From Candidatus Omnitrophota bacterium (lineage in GTDB: Bacteria; Omnitrophota; Gorgyraeia; VGKH01): DNA of 64,000 nt. The position numbers were made by a program, and so were the translations under genes. Below the pieces are notes generated by a model. The model saw only the letters and a program-made list of their open reading frames with translations, did not search any database and had not been told where the DNA came from. How positions within the stretch are numbered: position 1 is the stretch's first letter; each line of letters starts with the position of its first letter. The DNA is taken from NCBI GenBank assembly GCA_022703055.1, contig JAKLEP010000001.1, forward strand, positions 474,850 to 538,849. The letters run 5' to 3'. Positions 1 to 45,703 of the stretch are shown here, piece by piece.

Positions 1-258
1 GATGAGATTGCTCAAGAAGAATTTGAAAAGTTTTTGGTTGACCAAGGCGTGCCTCCAGAACAATATTATGAAGTTAGAGAGTTTTTTAAGTCATATCTTA
101 TTGATGAAGCTTTTAGAGTAGCCATAAATCAAAAAGAATTTAATAAATTCGCATCAAACCCTGTAATGATGGAAATTTTTCGTAAACTCGGACGCGAAAA
201 GATCCAAAATGTATCTGAATACATTAAAGACAATGTAATACTTAATATATTTAGTTAA
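1..258 (+). CDS. C-terminal fragment of an ORF continuing upstream of the window; possibly the R subunit of the adjacent type I R-M system
   Basis: Frame 1 is open from base 1 to TAA 256-258, which ends 2 nt before the methyltransferase start. Function is guessed from adjacency only; no catalytic motif is visible. Confidence 0.35.
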   Translation, partial: DEIAQEEFEKFLVDQGVPPEQYYEVREFFKSYLIDEAFRVAINQKEFNKFASNPVMMEIFRKLGREKIQNVSEYIKDNVILNIFS

Positions 259-260
259 AA

Positions 261-2240
261 ATGTTAAACGCAGAAACCAAACGAAAAATTGATGGCTTAC
301 GTGATACTTTAGTTGGCAAGATACCTGTGCCAACTGAGCAGGTTAAATTGATTACCCTTGGGCTTATTTACAAGTTTATGAGCGATATAGACCAGGAAAA
401 TAAAGAGCTAGGCGGCAAGTCGTTTTTTGCTGGAGAATACGAACAATACGCTTGGCATAAATTGATGGACAGGTCGCTTTCAAGCTATGAAAGGGTAGCA
501 ATATACTCGGAGGGCCTAGAAAAAATGGCTCTTAATCCTAATATCCCACAGCTTTTTAGAGATATTTTTAAAGGTGCATTTCTTCCCTTTAGGGATCCTG
601 CTACAGTAGATTTATTTTTGCGTGGCATTAACGATTTCCATTATGAACATAGCGAAGATTTAGGTGATGCCTTTGAATACCTAATTTCAATAATGGGTAC
701 ACAAGGCGAAGCAGGACAGTTTAGGACACCTCGCCATATTATTGACTTTATCGTAAAGGCCGTTGATCCACGAAAAACTGATACTGTTTTAGATCCTGCC
801 TGCGGCACAGCCGGATTCTTAATCTCTGCCTACAAACACATCCTTGAGCAAAACATGGATCCTCAATCAAAGAGGCCAGGTTCAGCTCTTACAACTGCAG
901 AAAGAAATAAATTAAGTAAAAATTTTGTTGGTTATGATATTTCTCACGATATGGTACGACTTTCTTTGGTAAATATGTACCTACATCAATTCGGAGATCC
1001 TAAAATTTACGAATACGATACGCTTACCAGCTTAGATCACTGGGAAGATAATTTCGATTGCATTTTAACCAATCCTCCTTTTATGACACCGAAGGGAGGA
1101 ATTAGACCGCACAAGAGGTTTGCTGTTAAGGCAAAGAAATCAGAAGTTTTATTTGTGGATTATGTTTTAGAGCATTTAAACAAAAGTTGTCGCGCTGGTA
1201 TCATTGTTCCTGAAGGAATAATTGAAAATGACGCTACAGCATACATCAGTTTAAGAAAAACCATGATCGATAGTAATTTTTTATATGCTATTATTTCCTT
1301 ACCCGTTGGGACATTTCAGCCGTATAGTGCAAACATAAAAACAAGTATTTTATTCTTTGACCGAATGTTGGCCGGTAGTACTAATACGTTATTGCATTTG
1401 AAAGTCGATCATGATGGGTTCGATTTAGGCAAAAATAGAAATCCTATTCAAGAAAATGACTTACCATTTATTCTTAGCGTTATAAAAAAATTTCAAAGCG
1501 ATATAGAAAGTAGACAATCGATAATAATACCTAAGCACCCCAAAGTTACTTTAATTGACAAAAATAAGATTAGAGAAAGAAATGATTATTCTTTAATGCT
1601 TAGGTATTATTTATTAAAAAAGCCTCAAAAAATTTCTGGCCAATGTGAAATGTTAGAGCTTGGCCAATTGTTCGACGTCAAAAAAGGAAGTTTACAGAGT
1701 TCTAAAAATACAGATGGCGAATACGATTTCATAACAGCATCAGAAACATGGAAAAAACATAATACCTATACACATGATTGTGAGGCTTTGCTTTTTGCAA
1801 TGGGTGCTTCAGGGTCTTTAGGAAGGACACATTATGTAAAAGGAAAATTTATTGCAAGCGATCTTTGTTTCATCTTGACTCCCAAAAAAGATTCCGATAG
1901 ACAAATTAATTTTAAGTTTTATTTCAAATATTTTACTCTACTGAGAGAAAAAGTAGTAAATGATATTGTTAAAGGTGCAGCAAAGAAAGCGATTAGTGCT
2001 AAGAATTTCAAAAAACATAAAGTACCATATCTCCCAATAGATACTCAAGAAAAAATTGTTAAAGAAATAGAGGATTTAGAGAATAAGATTAATAATGAAC
2101 AGGAAATAATAAATCGTCATTTAAATAGTATAGAAAGCTACAAAAATGACATCGAGAGGAAAATATTATCATCCTGGCAAATCGACCCCGGACCTTTTCC
2201 AGTTAAGAATGCTAGTAAGAAGATGGGTATTATAAATTAA
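261..2240 (+). CDS. hsdM: Type I R-M N6-adenine DNA methyltransferase (HsdM-like) fused to one HsdS-like target recognition domain plus helical spacer
   Basis: 659 aa. It has an HsdM-type N-terminus, GQFRTPRHII, motif I LDPACGTAGFL and motif IV TNPPF. The C-terminal ~190 aa (LELGQLFDVKKGS...ASDLCFILTPKK...IDTQEKIVKEIEDLENKI) resembles one HsdS TRD plus the conserved coiled-coil region. Confidence 0.85.
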   Translation: MLNAETKRKIDGLRDTLVGKIPVPTEQVKLITLGLIYKFMSDIDQENKELGGKSFFAGEYEQYAWHKLMDRSLSSYERVAIYSEGLEKMALNPNIPQLFRDIFKGAFLPFRDPATVDLFLRGINDFHYEHSEDLGDAFEYLISIMGTQGEAGQFRTPRHIIDFIVKAVDPRKTDTVLDPACGTAGFLISAYKHILEQNMDPQSKRPGSALTTAERNKLSKNFVGYDISHDMVRLSLVNMYLHQFGDPKIYEYDTLTSLDHWEDNFDCILTNPPFMTPKGGIRPHKRFAVKAKKSEVLFVDYVLEHLNKSCRAGIIVPEGIIENDATAYISLRKTMIDSNFLYAIISLPVGTFQPYSANIKTSILFFDRMLAGSTNTLLHLKVDHDGFDLGKNRNPIQENDLPFILSVIKKFQSDIESRQSIIIPKHPKVTLIDKNKIRERNDYSLMLRYYLLKKPQKISGQCEMLELGQLFDVKKGSLQSSKNTDGEYDFITASETWKKHNTYTHDCEALLFAMGASGSLGRTHYVKGKFIASDLCFILTPKKDSDRQINFKFYFKYFTLLREKVVNDIVKGAAKKAISAKNFKKHKVPYLPIDTQEKIVKEIEDLENKINNEQEIINRHLNSIESYKNDIERKILSSWQIDPGPFPVKNASKKMGIIN

Positions 2241-2269
2241 TTGACAATTTATATTAACTTTAATAGACT
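2241..2269 (+). promoter_or_regulatory. Candidate sigma70-type promoter for the small-ORF/PIN-PilZ pair
   Basis: TTGACA 2241-2246, 17-nt spacer, TAGACT 2264-2269, directly after the hsdM stop. Confidence 0.35.
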
Positions 2270-2290
2270 ATATTAAAAAGGGGGAGGAAA

Positions 2291-2464
2291 ATGAGTGGGG
2301 ATAGATTAGAAAAGCATAGAAAAGCAGAAAAAAGAGAAAATCCTAATGCTTTCTATGATTGGTTAAAAACTAATTGTCGTAAAGCTGTTCCTCATGAAGA
2401 GTTGAAAAGCCTGCCGGAAGAAAAGAAAAAAATCATAGAAGCAATCGTTTTAAAAAATTCTTAA
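2291..2464 (+). CDS. Small hypothetical protein (57 aa), candidate partner of the downstream PIN-PilZ protein
   Basis: ATG 2291 is preceded by GGGGGAGG (2280-2287). TAA 2462-2464 lies 3 nt before the next start. The ORF is below the ORF-track size cutoff. It translates as MSGDRLEKHRKAEKRENPNAFYDWLKTNCRKAVPHEELKSLPEEKKKIIEAIVLKNS. Confidence 0.45.
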   Translation: MSGDRLEKHRKAEKRENPNAFYDWLKTNCRKAVPHEELKSLPEEKKKIIEAIVLKNS

Positions 2465-2467
2465 TGA

Positions 2468-3331
2468 ATGATAATTGATTGCTTGCTTGATACAAATTCA
2501 ATTATAAAATTATATGTAGATATGAGGGGATCTGAAGTAGTAAGGCATCTCTACCAAAATCCTGCTGTACTTATCAATATTGCAAACACTCAAGTAGTTG
2601 AGGTTATCTCTCTTTTTTATAAGTTTAGAAGAGAAGGTGTATTTTCTAGCGATGAAGAAAGAACTAAATATGTCGATACTTTTTTAAAGGATATCTCTGA
2701 TAAAAAAATTGAAGTATATGATTTTGCAGATGAACACATTAAAGATTTTGAAGTATATGAAAAAATAACCAACATAAAACCTCCTTTTAAAAATCCAATT
2801 CGTCCTAAACAAGTTTTTATTCATAAATGGAATGCTTTTTTTAAAGAAGTAAAAGAGCCCGCAGACGGCATTGATACAATTATGCTATTAATAATGAGAG
2901 AAATGCATTTAATGACTCAAAAAGAAGCTTTTATTTTTTCTTCTGATGGACATGTTAAGAAAGTTGCTGAAGCTTTAGGTTTAAAAATTATAGACCCAGA
3001 ATCAAAGTCTTTGAGAGAATTGCCAGAAGAGTTATTGCGTTTTAGAAACAAAAGAGAAAATATTAATTTAAGAGCAATTTGTATAGATTGTGAAAGTTCA
3101 CTCCAACTAAATACATCCAGAGCAGTAAATATTTGTAAAGGTGGTTTATGCCTCGAAACAAGAAATTTATTAACAGTTGGTAAAAGATTAGATATTAGAA
3201 GACTAGAGTCTTATGATGGCTCAAAAACTATTGAAAATATTCCTTCGACTATTGTTTGGTATGATCAGCAAAAACAACAAGCAGGCTTAAAATTTCTGAA
3301 CGATTTTGATCATTCCGTTTTTCTTTCATAA
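2468..3331 (+). CDS. PIN-like nuclease domain fused to a C-terminal PilZ-like domain
   Basis: 287 aa. The PIN-type acidic residues fall in the expected contexts: D8 (LLDTN), E45 (QVVEVIS), D136 (GIDTIML) and D160 (FSSDGH). The C-terminus has RFRNKRENINLR, then 25 aa later NICKGGLCL, matching PilZ (D/N)xSxxG with S to C. The RxxxR motif is degenerate. Confidence 0.55.
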   Translation: MIIDCLLDTNSIIKLYVDMRGSEVVRHLYQNPAVLINIANTQVVEVISLFYKFRREGVFSSDEERTKYVDTFLKDISDKKIEVYDFADEHIKDFEVYEKITNIKPPFKNPIRPKQVFIHKWNAFFKEVKEPADGIDTIMLLIMREMHLMTQKEAFIFSSDGHVKKVAEALGLKIIDPESKSLRELPEELLRFRNKRENINLRAICIDCESSLQLNTSRAVNICKGGLCLETRNLLTVGKRLDIRRLESYDGSKTIENIPSTIVWYDQQKQQAGLKFLNDFDHSVFLS

Positions 3332-3368
3332 AAAAACTCAAAACAAAGAGACGGTCATATTTAATTTT

Positions 3369-3400
3369 TAGGGACGTTCCCCGAGTTGAACTTGAGGGAC
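3369..3400. repeat. Left copy of a 32-bp direct repeat bracketing the 3437-4045 gene
   Basis: TAGGGACGTTCCCCGAGTTGAACTTGAGGGAC matches 4057-4088 at 29 of 32 positions. It is followed by a small hairpin, AGGGAC-ctt-GTCCCT (3395-3409). Confidence 0.8.
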
Positions 3401-3436
3401 CTTGTCCCTATATGATTTGCGCACTAAATTTGTCAG

Positions 3437-4045
3437 ATGAAAAACATCAATATAAATATTATAAATACTGCTTGTAAGACAGGAAAATGGGATCTCGGTA
3501 ATGAAGTTTTATATTCCTTATGTAGAGAATACCCCTTTCATAAAAAAGACGGCGAAATTATTGCGAAGGTTTGGTTAATAGGAAGATCATACGCCGCTTC
3601 TATAGAACGTAGAAAAAATGCTAAGAGCAATAACGAAGAATTTTACGAATCAGAAGTTGTTCCAGCTATTAAAAATTCGAATATTGATTCCTGGCTATCC
3701 ATTACTTCTAAATTGCAAATTCCTGGAAGTGAAGAATCAGTTCTTGTTCACAAGAAACTAATGGATTTGTTTGCCTCGATATCTGGTCATAATAATAGGT
3801 CATTAGCGTCAAAGTATCTTCATTTTCACCAGCCAAAAGTATTTTTTATCTATGACAGCAGAGCAAGAAACGCCATTACAGAATATTGTCCTAAACTAAA
3901 CAAGATTGAAGATATCAATACTAAAGAATTTGATAAAGAGTATAAGGATTTTGTGAGAAAGTGCGTTTGGCTTAGGGGCCATATTAAGTCACTTTACGGA
4001 TTATCTCTTAAACCAAGAGAAATAGATAATTTCTTGTTAGGATAG
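3437..4045 (+). CDS. Hypothetical protein (202 aa), orphan gene between direct repeats
   Basis: The ORF is intact and AT-rich like the R-M islet. I cannot name a family with confidence. Motifs KVWLIGRSYAASIERR and ASKYLHFHQPKVFFIYDSRA are noted. Confidence 0.6.
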   Translation: MKNININIINTACKTGKWDLGNEVLYSLCREYPFHKKDGEIIAKVWLIGRSYAASIERRKNAKSNNEEFYESEVVPAIKNSNIDSWLSITSKLQIPGSEESVLVHKKLMDLFASISGHNNRSLASKYLHFHQPKVFFIYDSRARNAITEYCPKLNKIEDINTKEFDKEYKDFVRKCVWLRGHIKSLYGLSLKPREIDNFLLG

Positions 4046-4056
4046 AGTGATTAATC

Positions 4057-4088
4057 TAGGGACATTCCCCAAGTTGAACTTGAGGGCC
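4057..4088. repeat. Right copy of the 32-bp direct repeat
   Basis: TAGGGACATTCCCCAAGTTGAACTTGAGGGCC contains the 13-bp palindrome CAAGTTgAACTTG. It is followed by CCG-ctt-CGG plus a T-run (4090-4105). Confidence 0.8.
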
Positions 4089-4120
4089 CCCGCTTCGGAT
4101 TTTTGATGGAATTGAAAAAG

Positions 4121-4266
4121 ATCCCTCGCGCCTTTTGGCACTTCCTTCGCGTTGCTCAGGACTGTTCGAAGGACACTGAGCAAAGCGAACGTGCGGGATT
4201 CAATTCGCACTGACAACTTATGTTCACTATCGTTCCATAAGTTGTGTGCTCATTGAAGGAGAAAAA
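4121..4266 (+). promoter_or_regulatory. Conserved structured 5' leader, copy 1
   Basis: Boxes CCCTCGC (4123-4129) and CGGGATT (4194-4200) enclose a variable hairpin (4146-4189). A conserved hairpin follows, ACAACTTATG 4213-4222 / CATAAGTTGT 4236-4245, then GTGCTCATT, SD GAAGGAG and ATG 4267. Confidence 0.7.
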
Positions 4267-5013
4267 ATGAAAAAAATAGTCTATATTATTTCTGTTTTGT
4301 TGATTTTTGCAGCCGCTCAAGCGTTTGCGGAGATTCCGGGAAAAGTGCCAAGTTTGACAACATCAAAACAAAAGAGGTTGCAGAGTAGCGTTGTAAGTTC
4401 TGTCCAAGAGAAAGAGGAACACCCCGGTGTGCCGGCAGTCCCGTTTAATCTGCATGCCACTGTCCGCAGCAGTAAACAGATTGACCTTGCCTGGGGTTAT
4501 GGTAGATCAACCGAAGATGGTTTCGTGCTGGAGCGGCGTACAGAGACGGAAGGCGAGTACAAAGTCGTGGCTGCCATTTCTCAGGGAAGCCTGCGCTATG
4601 AAGATCTCCGGGTATATCCGAATACGACGTATCTGTATCGCGTCCGCGCATTTAATCGCGATGGGTACTCTGAAGCCAGTGCGGAAATTCAGGCTACTAC
4701 CCCGCCTCAGTTATTGCCATCAGCGCCGAATAACGTCAGTGCCCAGATCATCGAGGGTGTGACCAATGATGAATGTAAAGGCCCGCATGTTCTGATACAG
4801 TGGTATGATACTTCCAATAATGAAGACGGATTCAAAGTTGAACGCAAACGAGAAGGCGAGGGAGTATTTACTGAAATCGGCAGAGCCAAGAGGAATGAAA
4901 AAGCCCTGATACCGTCTGGTTGCGCGGTTTGGGGGACATCTTATTATCGCGTCAAGGCATTCAATAGCTACGGGGATTCAGAGGAATCGCCCATATGCTC
5001 TGCGGTTAGATAA
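4267..5013 (+). CDS. Secreted protein with two fibronectin type III domains
   Basis: Signal peptide MKKIVYIISVLLIFAAAQAFA. Two FN3-like units are present (...IDLAWGY...DGFVLERR...YLYRVRAFNRDGYSE and ...IQWYD...DGFKVERK...YYRVKAFNSYGDSE). I chose ATG 4267 with an SD rather than the track GTG 4246, which lies inside the conserved leader. Confidence 0.75.
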   Translation: MKKIVYIISVLLIFAAAQAFAEIPGKVPSLTTSKQKRLQSSVVSSVQEKEEHPGVPAVPFNLHATVRSSKQIDLAWGYGRSTEDGFVLERRTETEGEYKVVAAISQGSLRYEDLRVYPNTTYLYRVRAFNRDGYSEASAEIQATTPPQLLPSAPNNVSAQIIEGVTNDECKGPHVLIQWYDTSNNEDGFKVERKREGEGVFTEIGRAKRNEKALIPSGCAVWGTSYYRVKAFNSYGDSEESPICSAVR

Positions 5014-5030
5014 GGCAATCCAGGAATCCA

Positions 5031-5071
5031 GGGACGTTGCCGCCGAAAGTTAAAATCATCGGCAACGTCCC
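5031..5071. repeat. Inverted repeat of the GGGACGTTGCC family
   Basis: GGGACGTTGCCG (5031-5042) and CGGCAACGTCCC (5060-5071) form 12-bp perfect arms with a 17-nt loop. The same arm sequence recurs at 10773-10815. Confidence 0.8.
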
Positions 5072-5084
5072 CAGAAATAAATTT

Positions 5085-6338
5085 ATGACACATAAAATTA
5101 CAAATACCAATAATCATCCGCTGGACAATATTGTCCCGGAGAGGACTTTTTACGGCCTGGGGATAGCCCCGAAGATTCTTGATATCCTTGGGCATATAAA
5201 ATTCAAGGTTCCCACACCCATCCAGTTTAAGGCCATACCCCTGGCGCTTGAAGGTAAAGATGTTATCGGGATCGCCCAGACCGGGACCGGCAAGACTCAC
5301 GCCTTTGCCATTCCCATGATTCAGCGCCTGGCGCAAAGAAAAGGTGTGGGCCTGGTCTTGGCGCCTACGCGCGAATTGGCGATTCAGATCGACGAGGCTT
5401 TTATGAAAATGGCTCCTGCCTTCGGCATGAAGACAGCTTGTCTTATCGGCGGAGCTCCGATGGATGGTCAACTGCAGGCGCTGCGAAAAAATCCGCGTAT
5501 CGTTATTGCCACTCCGGGCAGGCTGATAGATCATATTGGCCGCTGGAATTTTATGCCGGATAGCGTATCGATGCTGGTGCTTGATGAAGCTGACCGCATG
5601 CTGGATATGGGATTTGCCCCGCAGATTGCACAGATCCTTAAGTTCCTTCCCAAAGACCGGCAGACCATGCTTTTTTCCGCCACTATCCCCAAGGAGATTA
5701 TGGAGATCGCCGCTAAGTATATGAAGCTTCCGGTTTCTCTTGAGGTTGCGCCTTCAGGCACGACCGTAGAGCACGTGACCCAGGAATTATTCATCGTCAA
5801 AAGAGAAGCCAAGATACGGCTTCTGGGAAAATTGCTGGCGCAATATCACGGCTCAGTCCTTTTGTTTAGCCGCACCAAGCATAATGCCCGCAATATCATG
5901 ATGGCCATACGCAAAATGGGATACAGCGCCGCAGAGATGCATTCTAACCGTTCGCTCGGACAGCGCCGCGAAGCGCTTGAGGGTTTTAAATCAGGAAGAT
6001 ACAAGGTGCTGGTGGCTACAGACATTGCATCACGGGGCATTGATGTGATCGGAATCGAGCTGGTAATTAATTATGACCTTCCGGAAGACTCGGAAAATTA
6101 TGTGCATAGGATCGGGCGCACGGCCAGGGCCGGCAGCCAGGGGCATGCGATTTCTTTTGCCACTCCTGAGCAGAGCCGCGATGTCCGGGCGATTGAGAAG
6201 CTTATCCGGCTGACGCTTACCGTCTCAAAACATCCGGATATACCTTCTGAGAAATTTGATGAATCTGCGCGGGCGAGGCCACGCAGGGATTTCAAGAGGT
6301 TTCACGGACCGAGACGGAATAAATTCCGTCCGCGTTAA
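5085..6338 (+). CDS. DEAD-box ATP-dependent RNA helicase (RhlE-like) with a basic C-terminal tail
   Basis: Q-motif region TPIQ, AQTGTGKT, PTRELA, VLDEADRMLDMGF, SAT, HRIGRTARAG, and an Arg/Lys-rich tail. The start is uncertain. I prefer ATG 5085 because the track TTG 5037 sits inside the palindrome. Confidence 0.9.
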   Translation: MTHKITNTNNHPLDNIVPERTFYGLGIAPKILDILGHIKFKVPTPIQFKAIPLALEGKDVIGIAQTGTGKTHAFAIPMIQRLAQRKGVGLVLAPTRELAIQIDEAFMKMAPAFGMKTACLIGGAPMDGQLQALRKNPRIVIATPGRLIDHIGRWNFMPDSVSMLVLDEADRMLDMGFAPQIAQILKFLPKDRQTMLFSATIPKEIMEIAAKYMKLPVSLEVAPSGTTVEHVTQELFIVKREAKIRLLGKLLAQYHGSVLLFSRTKHNARNIMMAIRKMGYSAAEMHSNRSLGQRREALEGFKSGRYKVLVATDIASRGIDVIGIELVINYDLPEDSENYVHRIGRTARAGSQGHAISFATPEQSRDVRAIEKLIRLTLTVSKHPDIPSEKFDESARARPRRDFKRFHGPRRNKFRPR

Positions 6339-6353
6339 ATTCCGGACCGGTTT

Positions 6354-6371
6354 CCCTCGCTTTGCTCGGGA
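6354..6371 (+). repeat. Minimal copy of the CCCTCGC/CTCGGGA box pair
   Basis: CCCTCGC (6354-6360), tttg, CTCGGGA (6365-6371). It is followed by hairpin GCACGC 6374-6379 / GCGTGC 6395-6400. Confidence 0.5.
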
Positions 6372-6400
6372 CTGCACGCTTAATGTAAAATAGGGCGTGC

Positions 6401-6427
6401 TTGCCAATTAAGTATTTGTGGTATAAT
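6401..6427 (+). promoter_or_regulatory. Candidate promoter with extended -10, driving leader copy 2
   Basis: TTGCCA 6401-6406, 15-nt spacer, TGgTATAAT 6419-6427. Confidence 0.45.
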
Positions 6428-6454
6428 AAGTTTTGAAGGCCCCTCGCCTTTTTA

Positions 6455-6620
6455 GGATTGAAGAGGAATTTTAGGGATAAGTAACTTAATTGATTTTTGT
6501 CCCTCGCCTAAGCACTTGTCAATTTCTCCGAAATTGACTGCGTAGGCTCGGGATTAATTCGCACTGACAACTTATGTTCGCTAGCGCTCCATAAGTTGTG
6601 TGCTCATTAAGGAGGGTGAT
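6455..6620 (+). promoter_or_regulatory. Conserved structured 5' leader, copy 2
   Basis: GGATTGAAGAGG, then GGGATAAGTAACTTAATTGATT. Boxes CCCTCGCC 6501-6508 and GGCTCGGGATT 6545-6555 enclose hairpin 6518-6538. The conserved hairpin is ACAACTTATG 6567-6576 / CATAAGTTGT 6590-6599, followed by GTGCTCATT, SD AAGGAGG and ATG 6621. Confidence 0.7.
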
Positions 6621-7436
6621 ATGAAAAAGGTTTTTGTTTTGATGATGGTGTTTTATGTCCTATCGGTTCAAGCAGCCAGCGCAGAGGATCGCTTGATGCA
6701 GAAACTGAAGACGGTAGACTGGACGAAAAAGAACCAGCCAGCCGAGCAGGCGCAAGAAAACCGGCCGGTTTCCAAAGCCCGCCAGGTGTCGAAGGCTACC
6801 GTGATCGATGTCCGCAACATAGCCGTCCCCGTCCCGCAACCGGGCGCGAACCAGGGAAACATCATTAGTTTCAAGACAGCATCCCCATCAGAGCCGGCGG
6901 CGAATTTGGTCAGTCTTGATTCATCCCAGCTTAAAGATATCTTAAGCGATTCCGGACTGCAGTTTACGCCGTCAAATCTTTATATGAGGCTAAGCCCGAA
7001 ACAGATATCCGTTTCCGGCAAAGGTTATCTTCATCCCTATAAGCCTTATATCGTCGTCCCTAGTTTCATGCTCTTTGATGAGTTCTACACGGGTAAAGAT
7101 TCCTCAGACGGGATACACGTGGTTTTGAAGGAAGCGGGGACCTATGTCCTTGATTTTCTTATCGAGATTGTAGATGGCTATCCGGTCGGACAGGTATATC
7201 CTTGTAAGGTCTTAAAAAGCCTTAGTTCAACGCTTCAAACCGTCAATATTTCTAAAGTTGACGGGCCTCAGCATATTCTCGTCGTTGTCAATTACGACGG
7301 AACCGCCTGGAGCAGTTCCCTTTCAGCTACAGGGGCCAATTTAAATCAACTATACGGCATTCATCTTGATAAACCCGAAGGAAGCTATTATGAGACCAAG
7401 TTTAAGTTTTATCAACTCGACGTCACCAAGATGTAG
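6621..7436 (+). CDS. Secreted hypothetical protein (271 aa)
   Basis: Signal peptide MKKVFVLMMVFYVLSVQAASA, a strong SD, and no recognisable domain. Confidence 0.7.
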   Translation: MKKVFVLMMVFYVLSVQAASAEDRLMQKLKTVDWTKKNQPAEQAQENRPVSKARQVSKATVIDVRNIAVPVPQPGANQGNIISFKTASPSEPAANLVSLDSSQLKDILSDSGLQFTPSNLYMRLSPKQISVSGKGYLHPYKPYIVVPSFMLFDEFYTGKDSSDGIHVVLKEAGTYVLDFLIEIVDGYPVGQVYPCKVLKSLSSTLQTVNISKVDGPQHILVVVNYDGTAWSSSLSATGANLNQLYGIHLDKPEGSYYETKFKFYQLDVTKM

Positions 7437-7471
7437 GCCCATTAGCCAGTTTAAGCCAGGGAGTTTTTAGT

Positions 7472-7619
7472 GTTGAAGAGTAATTTGGGGAATAAGTAAC
7501 TTAATTAATTGTTTTCCCTCGCCCGCCAATGCAGCAATGGCGGACTCGGGATTAATTCGGGCATACAACTTACGTCAGCTTCGCTTCCGTAAGTTGTGTT
7601 CTCATTAAGAAAGGACAAA
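7472..7619 (+). promoter_or_regulatory. Conserved structured 5' leader, copy 3
   Basis: GTTGAAGAG, then GGAATAAGTAACTTAATTAATT. Boxes CCCTCGCC 7516-7523 and CTCGGGATT 7545-7553 enclose hairpin 7523-7543. The conserved hairpin carries a compensatory change: ACAACTTACG 7565-7574 / CGTAAGTTGT 7588-7597. GTTCTCATT and ATG 7620 follow. Confidence 0.7.
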
Positions 7620-8048
7620 ATGGCAAAACTGTTTAGACGAAAACGCGCTGTAGCGCCGGTTGCGGCTGATGTGGATATCGCCGGCTTAATGGATAAGATT
7701 CAAAGCCAGCTGGATTCTCTGGAAAGAAAACTGGATACCTTGATCAGCCAATCATCCGGCCGGAGCCAAGATCGGCCTTTTAGGGGAAGATCCTTTGGCG
7801 GCCGTTCTTTTGGCCATGACAGAGGAAGGCGGGATGATCGTTCACGGGAAAGAATTCTTACCAAGGTGATTTGCGCCGAATGCGGCCAAGAATGCGAAGT
7901 CCCATTCAAGCCCACTGCAGACCGCCCGGTATACTGCAGGGAATGTTTCGCCAAGCGTAAAGGCGGCGGTGGCGGCTCTGATAGTTCCGTCCAGGAACAG
8001 GGAGATTTTAAACTAAAAACGAAATCGTTTTCGCGCCGGAGAAAATAA
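7620..8048 (+). CDS. Arg/Gly-rich zinc-ribbon protein (142 aa)
   Basis: The protein starts MAKLFRRKR and has a predicted helical segment. An RG-rich stretch RPFRGRSFGGRSFGHDRGRRDDRSRER follows. The four-Cys ribbon is CAECGQECEVPFKPTADRPVYCRECF. It is a paralog of 13496-13660. Confidence 0.7.
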   Translation: MAKLFRRKRAVAPVAADVDIAGLMDKIQSQLDSLERKLDTLISQSSGRSQDRPFRGRSFGGRSFGHDRGRRDDRSRERILTKVICAECGQECEVPFKPTADRPVYCRECFAKRKGGGGGSDSSVQEQGDFKLKTKSFSRRRK

Positions 8049-8058
8049 GAAGATTTTC

Positions 8059-8982
8059 ATGCTCACCAAGTTCCTGGAAAAATTTGCAAAATTGCTAGTG
8101 CTGTGGGTGGTTTTGGCGGCGGCAGTGGGATTTGTTTTTCCCCAGGTTTTAGTGCCGCTTAAGCCGTTCACTGATTGGCTGTTTGCATTTACCATGTTAG
8201 GTATCGGATGTTTACTTTCCGTCCAGGATTTTATGCCCATCCTTAAAAAACCTAAACTGATTCTGTTCGGCACTGCGGCGCAGTTCGTGATTATGCCTGT
8301 CTTGGCTTTTATCATCATCAAAATTTTAGGCCTGCCCGCTGCATTGGCAGTGGGATTGATCCTGGCCGCGGCAGTTCCCGATGCCATGGCAGCAGGAGTA
8401 ATGTCATATCTTGCCGAAGCCGATGTAGCATTTTCCGTGGCTTTGACTACTGCCACCACACTTGTCTCGCCGATTATCACCCCGGCATTGACCTATTTTC
8501 TGGGCCGGCAGTATATCCCGATACAATTCTGGCCGATGGTAAAAAGCATCTTGATGATGGTGATTTTTCCTTTGCTCCTTGGTTTGTGGGTGCAACATCG
8601 CTTTCATAAAATCACCACCCAAATCAAGCCGGTATTTCCCGCGTTATCCACATTGTTTATCGCATTTATCTGTGGCCTGGTCGTGGCATTAAACAAGAAT
8701 GCCATCAATAAAGTCACGGGAATAGTTTTGGTTTCCGTGGTAGCCTTGAATGTTTTCGGGTTGATTTTTGGATACCTGGCAGGCAAGGGATTCAAATTTG
8801 ATTTGGCCCAGCGCAGGACTCTGGCCATCAACGTGGGTATGCAAAACGCCGGAATGGGCGCGGTCTTGGCCATCAAGCATATTTCGCCCGAGGCAGCAAT
8901 CCCCAATGCGCTTTTTGCCACCTGGTGCATTGTCTCGGCGGCGATCCTGGCAGGAGTCTGGACGAGACATCAAATTAAATGA
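8059..8982 (+). CDS. Bile acid:sodium symporter (BASS/SBF-like) family transporter
   Basis: 307 aa polytopic membrane protein. It has a family-typical NVGMQNAGMGAVLA segment and BASS-like overall topology. Confidence 0.65.
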   Translation: MLTKFLEKFAKLLVLWVVLAAAVGFVFPQVLVPLKPFTDWLFAFTMLGIGCLLSVQDFMPILKKPKLILFGTAAQFVIMPVLAFIIIKILGLPAALAVGLILAAAVPDAMAAGVMSYLAEADVAFSVALTTATTLVSPIITPALTYFLGRQYIPIQFWPMVKSILMMVIFPLLLGLWVQHRFHKITTQIKPVFPALSTLFIAFICGLVVALNKNAINKVTGIVLVSVVALNVFGLIFGYLAGKGFKFDLAQRRTLAINVGMQNAGMGAVLAIKHISPEAAIPNALFATWCIVSAAILAGVWTRHQIK

Positions 8983-9635
8983 CACCTTATAAAAATTCTT
9001 CTTTAAAACTGGATAGGAAAACCTCAAGGCTTATTTCCGGCATAATTGTGGCTGTTTTGGTTGCGATCGCTTCTTATTTTCAGAATCAGGCCCGCCCTGT
9101 GAGTAATGCGCAGTATCAGTATCCCGAGAATAAAACCTACACCGTTACCAGAGTTTTTGACGGCGATTCGCTTGAGCTTGATGATGAAATCAAGGTCAGG
9201 CTTATCGGGATAGATGCCCCTGAGGATTTTCCCAATGTAAAATCGGCCAAGGAAAGCATGGCAACCGGCCAGGATGTCGGCACCATCGTAAAGATGGGAA
9301 GAGAAGCAAGGGACTTCGTCAAGGGCTTAGTTGAGGGCAAAAAAGTGCGTTTAGAGTTTGATAAAGATAAAAAAGATAAATACGGAAGGTTATTAGCTTA
9401 TGTTTTTATAGACACAAATTATAAATGGCGCATGACAGGCCGTGATTTTAGGGAAGATTCAGATATTGTTTATACTATTTACGGCGATGTTTGGAGTTTA
9501 TTTGTTAATGCGACGATTATCAAGCAAGGCTATGCCGAACCTTTGGATTTCGCGCCCAATGAAAAATACGCTGATTTATTCCGGAAGTTGTATCAGGAGG
9601 CAAAAGAGAAAAAGAGAGGGTTGTGGAAGCAGTAA
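8979..9635 (+). CDS. Membrane-anchored thermonuclease (staphylococcal nuclease homolog)
   Basis: N-terminal TM helix. SNase-like motifs VTRVFDGDSLEL, VRLIGIDAPE, GREARDFV, KYGRLLAYVF and QGYAE. Confidence 0.8.
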   Translation: MTPYKNSSLKLDRKTSRLISGIIVAVLVAIASYFQNQARPVSNAQYQYPENKTYTVTRVFDGDSLELDDEIKVRLIGIDAPEDFPNVKSAKESMATGQDVGTIVKMGREARDFVKGLVEGKKVRLEFDKDKKDKYGRLLAYVFIDTNYKWRMTGRDFREDSDIVYTIYGDVWSLFVNATIIKQGYAEPLDFAPNEKYADLFRKLYQEAKEKKRGLWKQ

Positions 9636-9655
9636 AAATATTCGCGGAGGTGTAA

Positions 9656-10351
9656 ATGAAGGTTTTATTTTCGGTCTTGATTTTTTTAGCAAGCGTTTCT
9701 GTGGCGAATGCGACAGAGGTTGTGGCGACCTGGGATGATGCAGCCCAGGCCCTTGCCGGTTGGCAGGGCGTAGCGGTAGGTAATTCCTTGGTTTATCACG
9801 ATACAGAAGGCAATCCCGGAGGATATATCGAAGCTTACGGTAATTTCAATTCGGGGATATCAAGCAACCAGCAGGATTTCACCGGTAATTTCTCAGAGAA
9901 AAATTATAATCGCATATTGATAGATATAAAGCCGATTATGGTGGCGGTTGCGGCCTGCAAGCCGGGAGTTTATCTGCGCTACAGCGCTTCTTTTGCCGCT
10001 TGGAAATACATTTTAAACAATTTCACCAATACCGCCGGAGCCTGGCAGCATTTTGAGGTGAATTTCAATCCTGCATGGACCGATGCAGAGGCTCAGGCCA
10101 ATGGCTGGAGCCTGGAAGAGGGGCCGGCGAAGAGCTTCGCCGAGACTATGGCGCATGTGGGTTCAGTTGCAGTTAAGATTAAATATATTTCTAATGCCGC
10201 AGCCTATATCGGTTATGATAATTTTACCTTAAAATATGTTGCGCCGCCGGCGACTAAATCGATAGGCCAGGTTTCAGGTTCAAAAACAAAACAAATAATC
10301 CCTTCTTCGGTTCTGGGCACGAAAAATACCCAGACGCAAGGGAAAAAATAG
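9656..10351 (+). CDS. Secreted hypothetical protein (possible jelly-roll/CBM-like fold)
   Basis: Signal peptide MKVLFSVLIFLASVSVANA and a GC-rich ORF. No confident family. Confidence 0.6.
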   Translation: MKVLFSVLIFLASVSVANATEVVATWDDAAQALAGWQGVAVGNSLVYHDTEGNPGGYIEAYGNFNSGISSNQQDFTGNFSEKNYNRILIDIKPIMVAVAACKPGVYLRYSASFAAWKYILNNFTNTAGAWQHFEVNFNPAWTDAEAQANGWSLEEGPAKSFAETMAHVGSVAVKIKYISNAAAYIGYDNFTLKYVAPPATKSIGQVSGSKTKQIIPSSVLGTKNTQTQGKK

Positions 10352-13495: not shown

Positions 13496-13660
13496 ATGAC
13501 AGCATATAATGACGGCGGATTCCGTAAAGATTTCCGCCCAAGAGAAATGTTCAAGGCAGTTTGCGCAGAATGTAATCAGGAATGTGAAGTTCCATTCAAG
13601 CCGACTGAAGGCAAACCCGTTTACTGCAGGGATTGCTATAAAAAGAAAAAAGGATATTAA
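13496..13660 (+). CDS. Small zinc-ribbon protein (54 aa), paralog of the C-terminus of 7620-8048
   Basis: Not in the ORF track. ATG 13496 follows GGGGGTGA and the stop is TAA 13658-13660. The ribbon is CAECNQECEVPFKPTEGKPVYCRDCY. Confidence 0.65.
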   Translation: MTAYNDGGFRKDFRPREMFKAVCAECNQECEVPFKPTEGKPVYCRDCYKKKKGY

Positions 13661-32485: not shown

Positions 32486-32563
32486 TAAAACAATCGTAAT
32501 TAAACCTAATGGGTCCAGAAATGAATATTTTTTTCTGGAGGTTAAAATTTTGAGATGGTCGGG

Positions 32564-32601
32564 CCGCCATCTGCTAAAAAAGCAGATGGCGGTTTTATTT
32601 T
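32564..32601 (+). terminator. Strong rho-independent terminator
   Basis: 12-bp perfect stem CCGCCATCTGCT (32564-32575) / AGCAGATGGCGG (32581-32592), loop AAAAA, then TTTTATTTT. Confidence 0.8.
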
Positions 32602-37968: not shown

Positions 37969-37973
37969 AATAG

Positions 37974-38098
37974 CTACCTTCGGGAGAGGGGTGAAATTCC
38001 CGACTGGTGGTAAAGTCCACGAGATTCGACCAATCGTCGGATCAGACCAAGTGTAATTCTTGGACCAATAGTCACAGTCTAGATGGGAGAAGGTAAAA
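37974..38098 (+). promoter_or_regulatory. FMN riboswitch (RFN element)
   Basis: P1 is ACCTTC...GAAGGT. Hallmark segments are GGGGTGAAATTCCCGACTGGTGGTAAAGTCCAC, GACCAAGTGTAATTCTTGGACC and AGTCTAGATGGGAGAAGG. It lies directly upstream of ribBA. Confidence 0.9.
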
Positions 38099-45386: not shown

Positions 45387-45465
45387 CGGGGAGTGGCTCA
45401 GTTTGGCTTAGAGCGCTTGGTTCGGGACCAAGAGGTCGTGGGTTCAAGTCCCACCTCCCCGACCA
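45387..45465 (+). tRNA. tRNA-Pro (anticodon CGG), CCA encoded
   Basis: Acceptor CGGGGAG/CTCCCCG. D arm GCTC-AGTTTGGCTTA-GAGC. Anticodon arm CTTGG-TTCGGGA-CCAAG with G37. T arm GTGGG-TTCAAGT-CCCAC. Discriminator A plus CCA. Confidence 0.9.
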
Positions 45466-45537
45466 TTTTGCTATTATTTGGTTTTAGGCAAAATGATCCC
45501 GAGCCATCTTGGTAGCTAATGGTAAGTGGCGAGGGGC
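45445..45537 (+). repeat. Copy A of a ~90-bp duplicated block that begins inside the tRNA-Pro T arm
   Basis: CAAGTCCCACCTCCCCGACCAT (45445-45466), then ATGATCCCGAGCCATC..GGTAGCTAATGGTAAGTGGCGAGGGGC (45493-45537). Confidence 0.85.
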
Positions 45538-45615
45538 GGTTTCCCTCGACTCAGATTAATATAAGTGGAGTCTCGGGACTTCGCCGCTAAAAAAGAGAAA
45601 AGCTAAAGCGGCTTG

Positions 45616-45703
45616 CAAGTCCCACCTCCCCGACCATCTGCCATTGGTACTTTGGCGGATGATCCCGAGCCATCAGGGTAGCTAATGGTAAGTGGCGAGG
45701 GGC
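45616..45703 (+). repeat. Copy B of the duplicated block (pseudo tRNA 3' end)
   Basis: There is a perfect 22-nt repeat of the tRNA 3' end at 45616-45637. The second conserved segment follows at 45659-45703, with 2 substitutions. Confidence 0.85.

Follow-up and report, generated by a model that had tools for sequence, protein, structure and literature searches.

On the plus strand of a 64-kb stretch of a Candidatus Omnitrophota genome (contig JAKLEP010000001.1, positions 474,850 to 538,849; the whole stretch is called the window below), a hairpin module occurs in three copies that end 12-13 nt before the ATG codons at 4267, 6621 and 7620. The genes behind copies 1 to 3 code, respectively, for an FN3 protein, a product without any Pfam hit and a zinc-ribbon protein of the zf_Tbcl_2 family (CxxC-x17-CxxC), and a DEAD-box helicase gene sits between copies 1 and 2. 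Each copy contains a 10-bp stem, ACAACTTATG/CATAAGTTGT in copies 1 (4213-4222/4236-4245) and 2 (6567-6576/6590-6599) and ACAACTTACG/CGTAAGTTGT in copy 3 (7565-7574/7588-7597); this stem pattern matched three times in the window, against 0.00 matches expected from 100 shuffles. An earlier reading of this DNA (the original prediction) had proposed a functional RNA leader here, and every position it gave for the module was borne out.

The copies form a family of 73-nt direct repeats (4202-4274, 6556-6628 and 7554-7626), with 85% identity between copies 1 and 2 across the 73 nt. Copies 2 and 3 do share an additional segment, as had been noticed before, which measures 60 nt at 85% identity (6449-6508/7464-7523). 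Together, these two copies make up a direct repeat of ~170 nt that brackets the gene at 6621-7436, and the length of the repeat unit in the window is ~190 nt. All three copies fold two hairpins, with z-scores of -4.9 to -6.6. Neither nhmmer nor a covariance model run with filters off found a fourth copy in the 64 kb.

Compensatory changes maintain two hairpins

The first hairpin, P1, is formed by the stem AUCCC...GGGAU. Its interior is hypervariable yet self-complementary in every copy, as originally proposed; the boxes CCCTCGC...CTCGGGAT, previously described as borders of this variable stem-loop, turned out to be the two strands of the P1 stem itself. P1 is joined to the second hairpin, P2, by the constant junction UUAAUUCG, and P2 is followed by the constant tail CUCAUU(N)AA with the Shine-Dalgarno sequence (SD) next. 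From its foot, P2 comprises a 4-bp base helix GCAC/GUGC (GGGC/GUUC in copy 3, held by G:U pairs), a bulge of 1-5 nt and the 10-bp stem, and it probably extends further into AAU/AUU across a 2x2 UC/UC internal loop. At the apex lie a UC/UC internal loop, a covarying helix of 2-4 bp and a small loop. The 13 nt that the original prediction had taken for a drifting loop are consequently not free, since they hold the UC/UC loop, a covarying 2-3-bp helix and the small loop.

Covariation was assessed on 21 aligned arms from many Omnitrophota contigs, over 17 pairs made up of AAU/AUU, GCAC/GUGC and the 10-bp stem. Pairing was retained in 98.3% of the alignment cells, so homologs that lack covariation, which would have spoken against a structured RNA, were not what we found; changes on both sides occurred in 8 of the 17 pairs, more than the single double substitution first reported. 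None of 500 shuffled controls reached any of the covariation measures, and controls with slid partners paired in only 23-44%. The base helix GCAC/GUGC is replaced by CGAC/GUCG (L017; loci outside the window carry L numbers throughout), GCGC/GCGC (L020a), ACCC/GGGU (L025), AACC/GGUU (L004:97) or GCUC/GAGC (L020b), and ACAAC/GUUGU by ACAAU/AUUGU, AUGAC/GUCAU or AUAAC/GUUAU, the last with an intermediate, AUAAC/GUUGU (U:G). At the apex, CG/CG or GC/GC stands in place of UG/CA.

The P1 stem covaries as well. Its basal part is alike among the copies of one genome and varies from genome to genome: the window and L007 have CCC-UC-GCC, all three copies of L009 have CCCCCACCACUUUUUG, L005 and L006 share CCCCCCUUCUU, L010, L014 and L017 share CCCUCACCUUUUU, and L003, L008 and L013 share CCCGCACC. 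This likeness within a genome extends to the arms, and P1 units homologous to that of copy 2 show compensatory changes in L021, L027, L020 and L022. Both hairpins, P2 and P1, are thus maintained through compensatory change.

Compensation alone would nevertheless be no proof of a regulatory RNA, because the variable hairpin between the conserved arms of REPINs (repetitive extragenic palindromic [REP] doublets forming hairpins), which are mobile DNA, also compensates; these elements combine conserved arms with a hairpin-forming spacer that is variable and in which compensatory changes are common (PMC3116915). For genome scans this calls for caution, as regulatory RNAs and palindromic mobile repeats are not told apart by compensatory change in a repeated hairpin alone.

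Arms of a larger palindrome

The profile and covariance model of the right arm also matched the opposite strand just 5′ of P1, in L005, L006, L009 (three times), L010 and L014. Under the model of the right arm, these inverted left arms reach 37-72 bits (71.8 bits in L005), and they delimit seven full elements, in which two inverted arms of ~65 nt each surround P1. A full element reads left arm (UUAAGUGAGGAC, hairpin P0, GUCCGAACUUAUCCC), P1 and right arm, the complete right arm being composed of the constant junction GGGAUUAAUUCG, hairpin P2 and the constant tail, followed by the SD and AUG of the downstream gene B. The left arm corresponds to the right arm in inverted and diverged form and is placed after the stop codon or terminator of the upstream gene A. 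In the window, P1 and the right arm are intact, and the left arms have decayed to remnants (CAAGTTGAACTTG in copy 1, ATAAGTAACTTAAT in copies 2 and 3; Table 1). The window module is thus the right arm and centre of a bigger imperfect palindrome. In copy 1, GAAUUGA of the left segment is able to pair with UCAAUUC at 4200-4206; the upstream segment of copy 3 begins ~28 nt past the stop codon (7434-7436) with which the preceding gene ends.

Flanked by the constant AAUUC(G) on one side and (C)UCAUU on the other, the hairpin is exchangeable, and four types were seen: the long ACAACUUAYG hairpin; a short GC-rich one, CCCCGACG/CGUCGGGG (L017:6540, L020:4268 and L004:3581); the genome's own P1-type hairpin (L017:7588 and L021:1566); and a mini hairpin (L027). 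Junction and tail stay invariant where the hairpin is swapped. P1-type hairpins also stand alone, e.g. past the helicase gene of the window (Table 1), around a tRNA-Pro gene and directly before the ATG of the zinc-ribbon gene in L017, L021 and L023.

Table 1. Module parts and associated sites in the window
Feature	Position	Strand	Description
Copy 1, decayed left-arm/leader segment	4066-4120	+	Contains CAAGTTGAACTTG and GGCCCCCGCTTCGG..GGAATTGAAAAAG; by comparison with full left arms
Copy 1, P1	4121-4199	+	Stem AUCCC-UC-GCGC...GUGC-GGGAU closing the variable inner hairpin 4146-4189; folds, covaries between genomes
Copy 1, right arm	4195-4254	+	Junction GGGAUUCAAUUCGCAC, P2 4213-4245, tail GUGCUCAUU 4246-4254; 79.8 bits; SD GAAGGAG after tail, then ATG 4267
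Stand-alone minimal P1-type hairpin	6354-6371	+	CCCTCGC-TTTG-CTCGGGA, directly past the stop codon of the DEAD-box helicase gene; regular-expression match
Promoter-like site 5′ of copy 2	6401-6427	+	TTGCCA, 15 nt, TGgTATAAT (extended -10); GGACCGGTT stands ahead of it (6345-6353)
Copy 2, upstream leader segment	6438-6498	+	Decayed left-arm remnant GGGATAAGTAACTTAATTGATT at 6474-6495, by comparison with full left arms; 60-nt repeat with copy 3
Copy 2, P1	6499-6554	+	GUCCC-UC-GCCUA...UAGGC-UC-GGGAU with inner hairpin; folds
Copy 2, right arm	6550-6608	+	Junction, P2 6567-6599, tail 6600-6608; 79 bits; SD AAGGAGG after tail, then ATG 6621
Copy 3, upstream segment in common with copy 2	7464-7514	+	Left-arm remnant GGGGAATAAGTAACTTAATTAATT
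Copy 3, P1	7515-7552	+	UCCC-UC-G.CCGCCA...UGGCGG.C-UC-GGGA; folds
Copy 3, right arm	7548-7606	+	Junction GGGAUUAAUUCGGGC, P2 7565-7597, tail GUUCUCAUU; ATG 7620; 77.4 bits

Distribution, genomic context and change between relatives

To find the module in other genomes, we used a pattern that fixes only the unpaired flanks, GGGATT(N)AATTCG...TGTGTKCTCATT, and leaves the stem free. GTDB species genomes yielded four loci, three of them in metagenome-assembled genomes (MAGs) of Candidatus Omnitrophota and one in a genome labelled Planctomycetia. Metagenomes yielded 12, among them a chance match (L016) and two duplicates (L012 of L006, and L015 of the genome locus L001). Together these are 15 real loci with 13 distinct sequences, the named ones being Omnitrophota MAGs with one exception. 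Additional variants came from loci retrieved via homologues of the zinc-ribbon protein, not via the motif. The arm with covarying stems is thereby present on at least 20 other contigs, in differing Omnitrophota genomes and contexts; the arm of copy 1, for instance, recurs in L007 before an unrelated membrane protein gene. Local density reaches three copies per 4-12 kb elsewhere (L004, L009, L017), and all copies are extragenic. No viral contig matched the module, nor did it show similarity to plasmids and phages.

Rfam 15 returned nothing for the module at the gathering threshold in the window, where two other RNAs do exceed their thresholds (an FMN riboswitch at 37972-38098, 99 bits, and an nhaA-I RNA at 32511-32572, 52 bits). 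At E<=10, the region 3900-8100 gave only chance-level miRNA, snoRNA and rne5 matches, of which the rne5 match on copy 3 was dismissed as chance (15.7 bits vs. a gathering score of 180); at E<=0.1, six variant-bearing loci gave nothing relevant. The original prediction was therefore right in recognizing no known riboswitch or leader class, in that the module belongs to no Rfam family. A search of the literature on repeats or RNA motifs in Omnitrophota/Omnitrophica found nothing relevant.

Genomic context was recorded for 34 arms with scores of ~35 bits or more. In 20 of these, a start codon on the same strand is found 4-20 nt past CAUU, mostly with the SD at 1-6 nt from the tail, and nine are inverted, downstream of the preceding gene. 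The position of the element, before the SD or past stop codons, is thus a fixed one. The inverted arms of L003 and L004 (after GroEL) overlap the preceding gene's stop codon, as do the left arms in the arg operon of L009, three consecutive spacers of which are filled by the element; the left arms of L005 and L006 come after a terminator-like hairpin and T-run instead of a stop codon. Three further arms have a tRNA gene on one side and, on the other, a direct repeat of part of that tRNA: tRNA-Gly with a ~43-nt copy of its 3′ half in L008 and L013, and, in L001, where the module is inverted, 19 nt copied from the 5′ end of tRNA-Arg. The remaining two arms fall outside all of these classes.

The genes behind arms in other genomes are unrelated too, as the original prediction had noted for the three in the window: they encode GroES, FabF, ArgC, ArgD, ArgF, an RNase E/G homologue, LemA, Band_7, MIP and fn3 proteins and small membrane proteins, and no functionally coherent set was seen among them. 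The element is found within arg, fab and groESL operons, and the FabF copy is preceded by a terminator-like hairpin and T-run. Within the window, UCAUU(N)AAGGAG is not the general context of ribosome-binding sites (RBSs), occurring at modules only.

In addition, the window holds a tRNA-Pro(CGG) gene (45387-45465) with an exact 22-nt repeat of its 3′ end 171 nt further on (45445-45466/45616-45637). Beside it lie two 45-nt hairpin repeats, TCCCGAGCC...GGCGAGGGG (45493-45537 and 45659-45703; 96% identical), with P1-type boxes on the opposite strand, and a third P1-type hairpin, CCCTCGACTC...GAGTCTCGGGA (~45544-45580); the second 45-nt repeat stops 8 nt before ATG 45712 of an acylphosphatase-like open reading frame. 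This arrangement looks like an att-type remnant akin to the tRNA-linked modules of L008, L013 and L001. In L001, moreover, tRNA-Pro and the tRNA-Arg that bears the module are separated by a four-helix-bundle protein gene (4301-5063) with repeated TTCACAGTTGACAG/CTGTCAACT motifs on its flanks; the product is putatively of the type found in 23S rRNA intervening sequences.

The neighbourhood of the zinc-ribbon gene was compared between the window (1-10351) and L017 and L021-L027. Modules or module-derived hairpins flank this gene in 7 of the 12 protein-retrieved loci (window, L017/L018, L020, L022, L025, L027), and no zinc-ribbon or helicase gene lies near the motif-ascertained loci. Of the orthologues themselves, that of the window carries the full module and those of L020, L027 and L025 carry variants; L017, L021 and L023 have a P1-type hairpin only, and L019, L022 and L026 nothing recognizable. 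The surrounding genes (FN3, OsmC, MIP, DUF2284, DEAD-box helicase, SNase) are reordered in almost every relative, with helicases that are 90% identical.

A close comparison is that of L017 with L021, which share the same protein order at 86-97% identity. Their OsmC-MIP spacers are identical save for a precise 58-nt P1 hairpin present in L021 only, and the spacer between the zinc-ribbon and fn3 genes has been wholly replaced, with a module in L017 and a different hairpin in L021. At the site after the zinc-ribbon gene, L025 has P1 as in L017, but a long P2 and a different downstream gene. Copy 2 has a P1 that shares 77% identity with the one preceding MIP in L021 and 73% with that of the zinc-ribbon leader in L027, where the same promoter-like motif is found. 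Owing to these indels, spacer replacements, hairpin swaps and variable gene order among relatives, the element appears to behave as a recombining or mobile intergenic repeat and not as a vertically conserved, gene-specific leader.

The promoter-like motif, GGACCGGTT ... (G)ATAAGTATTTGTGGTATAATARGTTTTGAA with an extended -10, recurs in the window (6345-6436), L017 (5822-5865), L019 (5385-5425) and L027 (835-870); it precedes the zinc-ribbon gene in the relatives and the 6621-7436 gene in the window. The arrangement suggests that the 6621-7436 gene, together with a second leader copy, was inserted between promoter and zinc-ribbon gene. The site at 6401-6427, which was not among the consensus-scan hits on account of its 15-nt spacer, may function as a promoter and would place copy 2 in a 5′ untranslated region (UTR).

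Other observations concern the same neighbourhoods. Those of the window and L017 both adjoin type I restriction-modification genes. A second hairpin family, GGGACGTTGCC...GGCAACGTCCCC, lies at 5027-5075 of the window, just 5′ of the start codon of the DEAD-box helicase gene, and recurs whole or half in spacers of relatives (L021 562-610, L025 ~203-215, L026 ~1000-1010); in L021 it occupies the spacer that holds the module in L017. The window encodes a short paralogue of the zinc-ribbon domain (CxxC-x17-CxxC) at 13523-13654, with 63% identity over 46 aa in tblastn, and small paralogues also occur in L019 and L024. L019, a zinc-ribbon locus without the module, has genes for a CSD protein, a small zf_Tbcl_2 protein, an RRM_1 protein and rubrerythrin at 10-2159; this cluster of cold-shock type bears on a possible role of the zinc-ribbon protein.

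Interpretation and comparison with known systems

The reading that we prefer, with a probability of roughly 50%, is that the three copies represent the right arm and centre of a modular, imperfectly palindromic intergenic repeat, widespread in Omnitrophota and similar to REP sequences and bacterial interspersed mosaic elements (BIMEs) or to MITEs (miniature inverted-repeat transposable elements), with a putative role as a cap at the RNA level. As DNA, the element would spread or recombine in the manner of REP/BIME/REPIN or MITE sequences, its hairpin units being able to move. In mRNA, the right arm may form a generic structural cap, i.e. a stable helix of 17-25 bp located 1-6 nt 5′ of an unpaired AU-rich SD, which could protect or insulate the downstream cistron, either as a 5′ stabilizer or by RNase III/E processing between the hairpins. 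The mirrored left arm would supply the upstream cistron with a 3′ hairpin. A ligand-specific or gene-specific switch, by contrast, the module would not be.

The module is almost certainly transcribed in the sense of the downstream genes, because copy 2 lies between the promoter-like motif and its gene, and copy 3, like those of L009, has an intercistronic position. The arm helices contain nine G:U cells on the sense strand vs. about two A.C cells, an excess that speaks for selection of the hairpin on the sense strand; in all, wobble pairs make up only 2.6% of cells. For P1, 40 G:U pairs on the plus strand compare with 30 on the minus strand, with mixed energies and no strand signal. We infer that it was as a palindrome in DNA that the hairpins took their shape, and that the retained right arm is under RNA-level constraint.

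Several other assignments were tried and rejected. A riboswitch or ligand-binding leader is at odds with two independent hairpins that have swappable interiors and precede unrelated genes, and no expression platform was recognized, as the SD lies outside the helices in the window copies and no terminator follows. A sigma-54 promoter-type sequence, TGGCAC-N5-TCGC, is present in copy 1 only and is not conserved, and the module contains no conserved -35/-10 pair of a sigma-70 promoter. For a tRNA-like fold, or a split tRNA formed with the adjacent tRNA halves, complementary acceptor and anticodon strands are absent. The consensus of the Nus boxA (rrn/lambda nut) is a single-stranded, conserved box of the GCUCUUUAACAA type; the tail UGCUCAUUAA is similar, but its GUGC part is paired and covaries (CGAC/GUCG, ACCC/GGGU, AACC/GGUU, GCUC/GAGC), leaving UCAUU(N)AA alone constant.

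A number of observations weigh against the preferred reading. In the window, the copies are clustered, with three within 3.5 kb and none in the remaining 60 kb, and the conservation of the arms across divergent genomes far exceeds that of usual REP/MITE families. No transposase, RAYT (REP-associated tyrosine transposase) or integrase was found among Pfam-annotated or inspected neighbours in the examined loci, and no consistent target-site duplication flanks the seven full elements. That the arm keeps an almost constant distance from the start codon speaks for selection on a specific RNA function over passive insertion, and the role as stabilizer or insulator is something we infer. The minus strand poses a difficulty of its own: summed over the arms, its folding energy is -414 vs. 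-394 kcal/mol for the plus strand, in conflict with the G:U excess on the latter, the three conserved UC/UC loops read as tandem G.A in 5′-YGAR context there, which is the stable context for tandem G.A, and its apical loops are GAA, GUA or GNNA, including GCGAAGC in copy 3. These features hint at a hairpin that took shape as single-stranded DNA or on the opposite strand. In the full element, the left arm, right past the upstream stop codon, shows the GA-type hairpin in the mRNA sense.

The minus-strand features, the nested palindrome and the rarity of wobble pairs are what one might expect if the element acted at the DNA level throughout, its arms being single-stranded hairpin sites for an HUH/Y1 transposase, as in REP-RAYT systems, or attC-like sites of cassette recombination, and if transcription and SD adjacency were by-products of tolerated insertion sites. 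This explanation, the best placed of the alternatives and still an unlikely one, would also accommodate the modules between tRNA genes and their 43-nt or 19-nt partial repeats (L008, L013, L001), the 22-nt tRNA-Pro repeat around P1-type hairpins in the window, the ~170-nt direct repeat of copies 2 and 3 on either side of one gene, and the gene order around the zinc-ribbon gene, which is shuffled among relatives with 90% identical helicases. It leaves the constant spacing of 20 of 34 arms at 4-20 nt from a start codon unexplained, and it conflicts with the lack of a nearby recombinase or transposase and of a target-site duplication, with the G:U asymmetry towards the sense strand, with occurrence inside core operons and with the lack of any match in the viral, plasmid and phage collections. 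Upon sequence inspection, both the attC core RYYYAAC/GTTRRRY and the GTAG of REP sequences were absent.

Conversely, the module may be a dedicated cis-regulatory leader, its junction, tail and loops bound by a trans-acting factor (the zinc-ribbon protein or the DEAD-box helicase) that controls stability or translation of stress-type genes. The enrichment of modules beside the zinc-ribbon gene (7 of the 12 loci retrieved through the protein), with no copy in the other 60 kb of the window, points this way, as do the invariance of junction and tail despite hairpin swaps, the G:U excess on the sense strand and neighbours of stress type (DEAD-box, OsmC and MIP, plus CSD and RRM in L019). The enrichment is all that remains of the originally proposed link to the zinc-ribbon protein; an autoregulatory circuit through it finds no support, with orthologues in L019, L022 and L026 that have no module and those in L017, L021 and L023 that have a P1-type hairpin only. 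Moreover, arms precede arg, fab, groES and rne-like genes with no zinc-ribbon gene nearby, a leader role accounts neither for inverted post-stop nor for tRNA-linked copies, and the palindromic left arm is left without explanation. We therefore consider a dedicated leader improbable. From the original notion of a functional RNA leader, the conserved structure and apparent sense transcription are retained; the dedicated function is not, given arms before unrelated housekeeping genes, a module that is half of a palindrome with inverted and tRNA-linked copies, and hairpins that are swapped, inserted or deleted between close relatives.

Quite improbable, though it would join both levels, is a portable leader cassette. 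Its DNA arms would serve for the insertion, excision and shuffling of single genes by recombination behind a shared promoter and leader, in an integron-like manner without a recognizable integron integrase and with capture of tRNA fragments, and its RNA arm would provide a standard, structured 5′ end recognized by a dedicated factor, for which the adjacent RG-rich zinc-ribbon protein would be the obvious candidate. Compatible with it are the ~170-nt repeat bracketing the 6621-7436 gene, the gene-order shuffling, the tRNA partial repeats and the zinc-ribbon enrichment. Finally, a recent local duplication of one 5′ UTR with no wider meaning would fit copies within 3.5 kb, 85% identity of copies 1 and 2 over 73 nt and the extra 60 nt in copies 2 and 3, but is contradicted by the covarying arm on at least 20 other Omnitrophota contigs and can hardly be upheld.

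To our knowledge, almost nothing is known of gene expression or genome change in the uncultivated Omnitrophota. The element marks many spacers, including those of core operons, varies among close relatives and puts a standard hairpin before the RBS, and thereby gives access to the processing and stability of mRNA in this phylum, as well as to a possibly new route of small-element or gene-cassette mobility.

With respect to known systems, the preferred reading as an intergenic repeat is most directly measured against REP/BIME/REPIN sequences of Enterobacteria and Pseudomonas. Like these, the element consists of imperfect palindromes in inverted pairs around a variable hairpin spacer, as found in the seven full elements; it is extragenic, often within operons and just past stop codons, and has stems that are alike within a genome. 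In BIMEs, the Y and Z REP types differ slightly, as do the Omnitrophota arm types, and REP/BIME elements stabilize upstream mRNA. In contrast, no RAYT was seen in the examined loci and GTAG is missing at the foot of the hairpin. Such families number tens to hundreds of copies per genome, and the 64 kb of the window hold three, clustered. Unlike REP arms, those of Omnitrophota are conserved across divergent genomes, one of them keeps a nearly fixed distance (4-20 nt) from start codons, and the hairpin is exchangeable.

Correia elements are transcribed inverted repeats that are cut or protected by RNase III and alter the expression of neighbouring genes (PMC2649163), and Correia/ERIC-type MITEs in general are co-transcribed with their neighbours, fold as RNA hairpins and are RNase III-cut or -protected (PMC2649163, PMC2229807). 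The Omnitrophota element resembles Correia (CREE/NEMIS) and ERIC MITEs in its size (~100-280 nt), in its inverted-repeat boundaries and in presence/absence differences between related genomes. Two hallmarks of MITEs are accordingly seen, terminal inverted repeats (the ~65-nt arms) and presence/absence polymorphism (the 58-nt P1 indel between L017 and L021). A target-site duplication of fixed length is not: only TTAA-like ends recur, which are part of the palindrome itself, and the 19-43-nt repeats at tRNA-linked copies are too long for a transposase-made duplication. In further distinction from Correia/ERIC sequences, we identified no TA duplication, integration host factor site or own promoter, no parent insertion sequence is known, and every single arm forms a conserved hairpin of its own.

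Integron attC sites share with the element an imperfect palindrome with conserved ends, unpaired bases and a variable centre, a position between same-orientation open reading frames of variable order, and better folding of the strand opposite the genes. They differ in that the element resides in core biosynthetic operons, and its tRNA-linked copies are no integron feature. Assignment to attC was rejected, as the R''/R' consensus is absent, the ends being AAUUCG...CUCAUU and the best internal resemblance, TGACAAC/GTTGTGT, only partial. No IntI integrase was present among ten proteins scanned in 261-10351.

For the mode of action, the intercistronic RNase III sites of T7 early mRNA and the 5′ UTR stabilizer of ompA, in which a long, imperfect helix with small internal loops stands, between cistrons or at the 5′ end, immediately before an unpaired RBS, offer a likeness in mechanism only, with no sequence relationship to the Omnitrophota module. 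By its architecture, the element would belong among the structured palindromic intergenic repeats, close to REP/BIME/REPIN and Correia/ERIC sequences. Within this class it would be set apart by hairpins that are exchanged while their flanks stay invariant, three 2x2 loops of conserved pyrimidines, strict SD adjacency, duplications of tRNA fragments, and conservation across a phylum of uncultivated bacteria.

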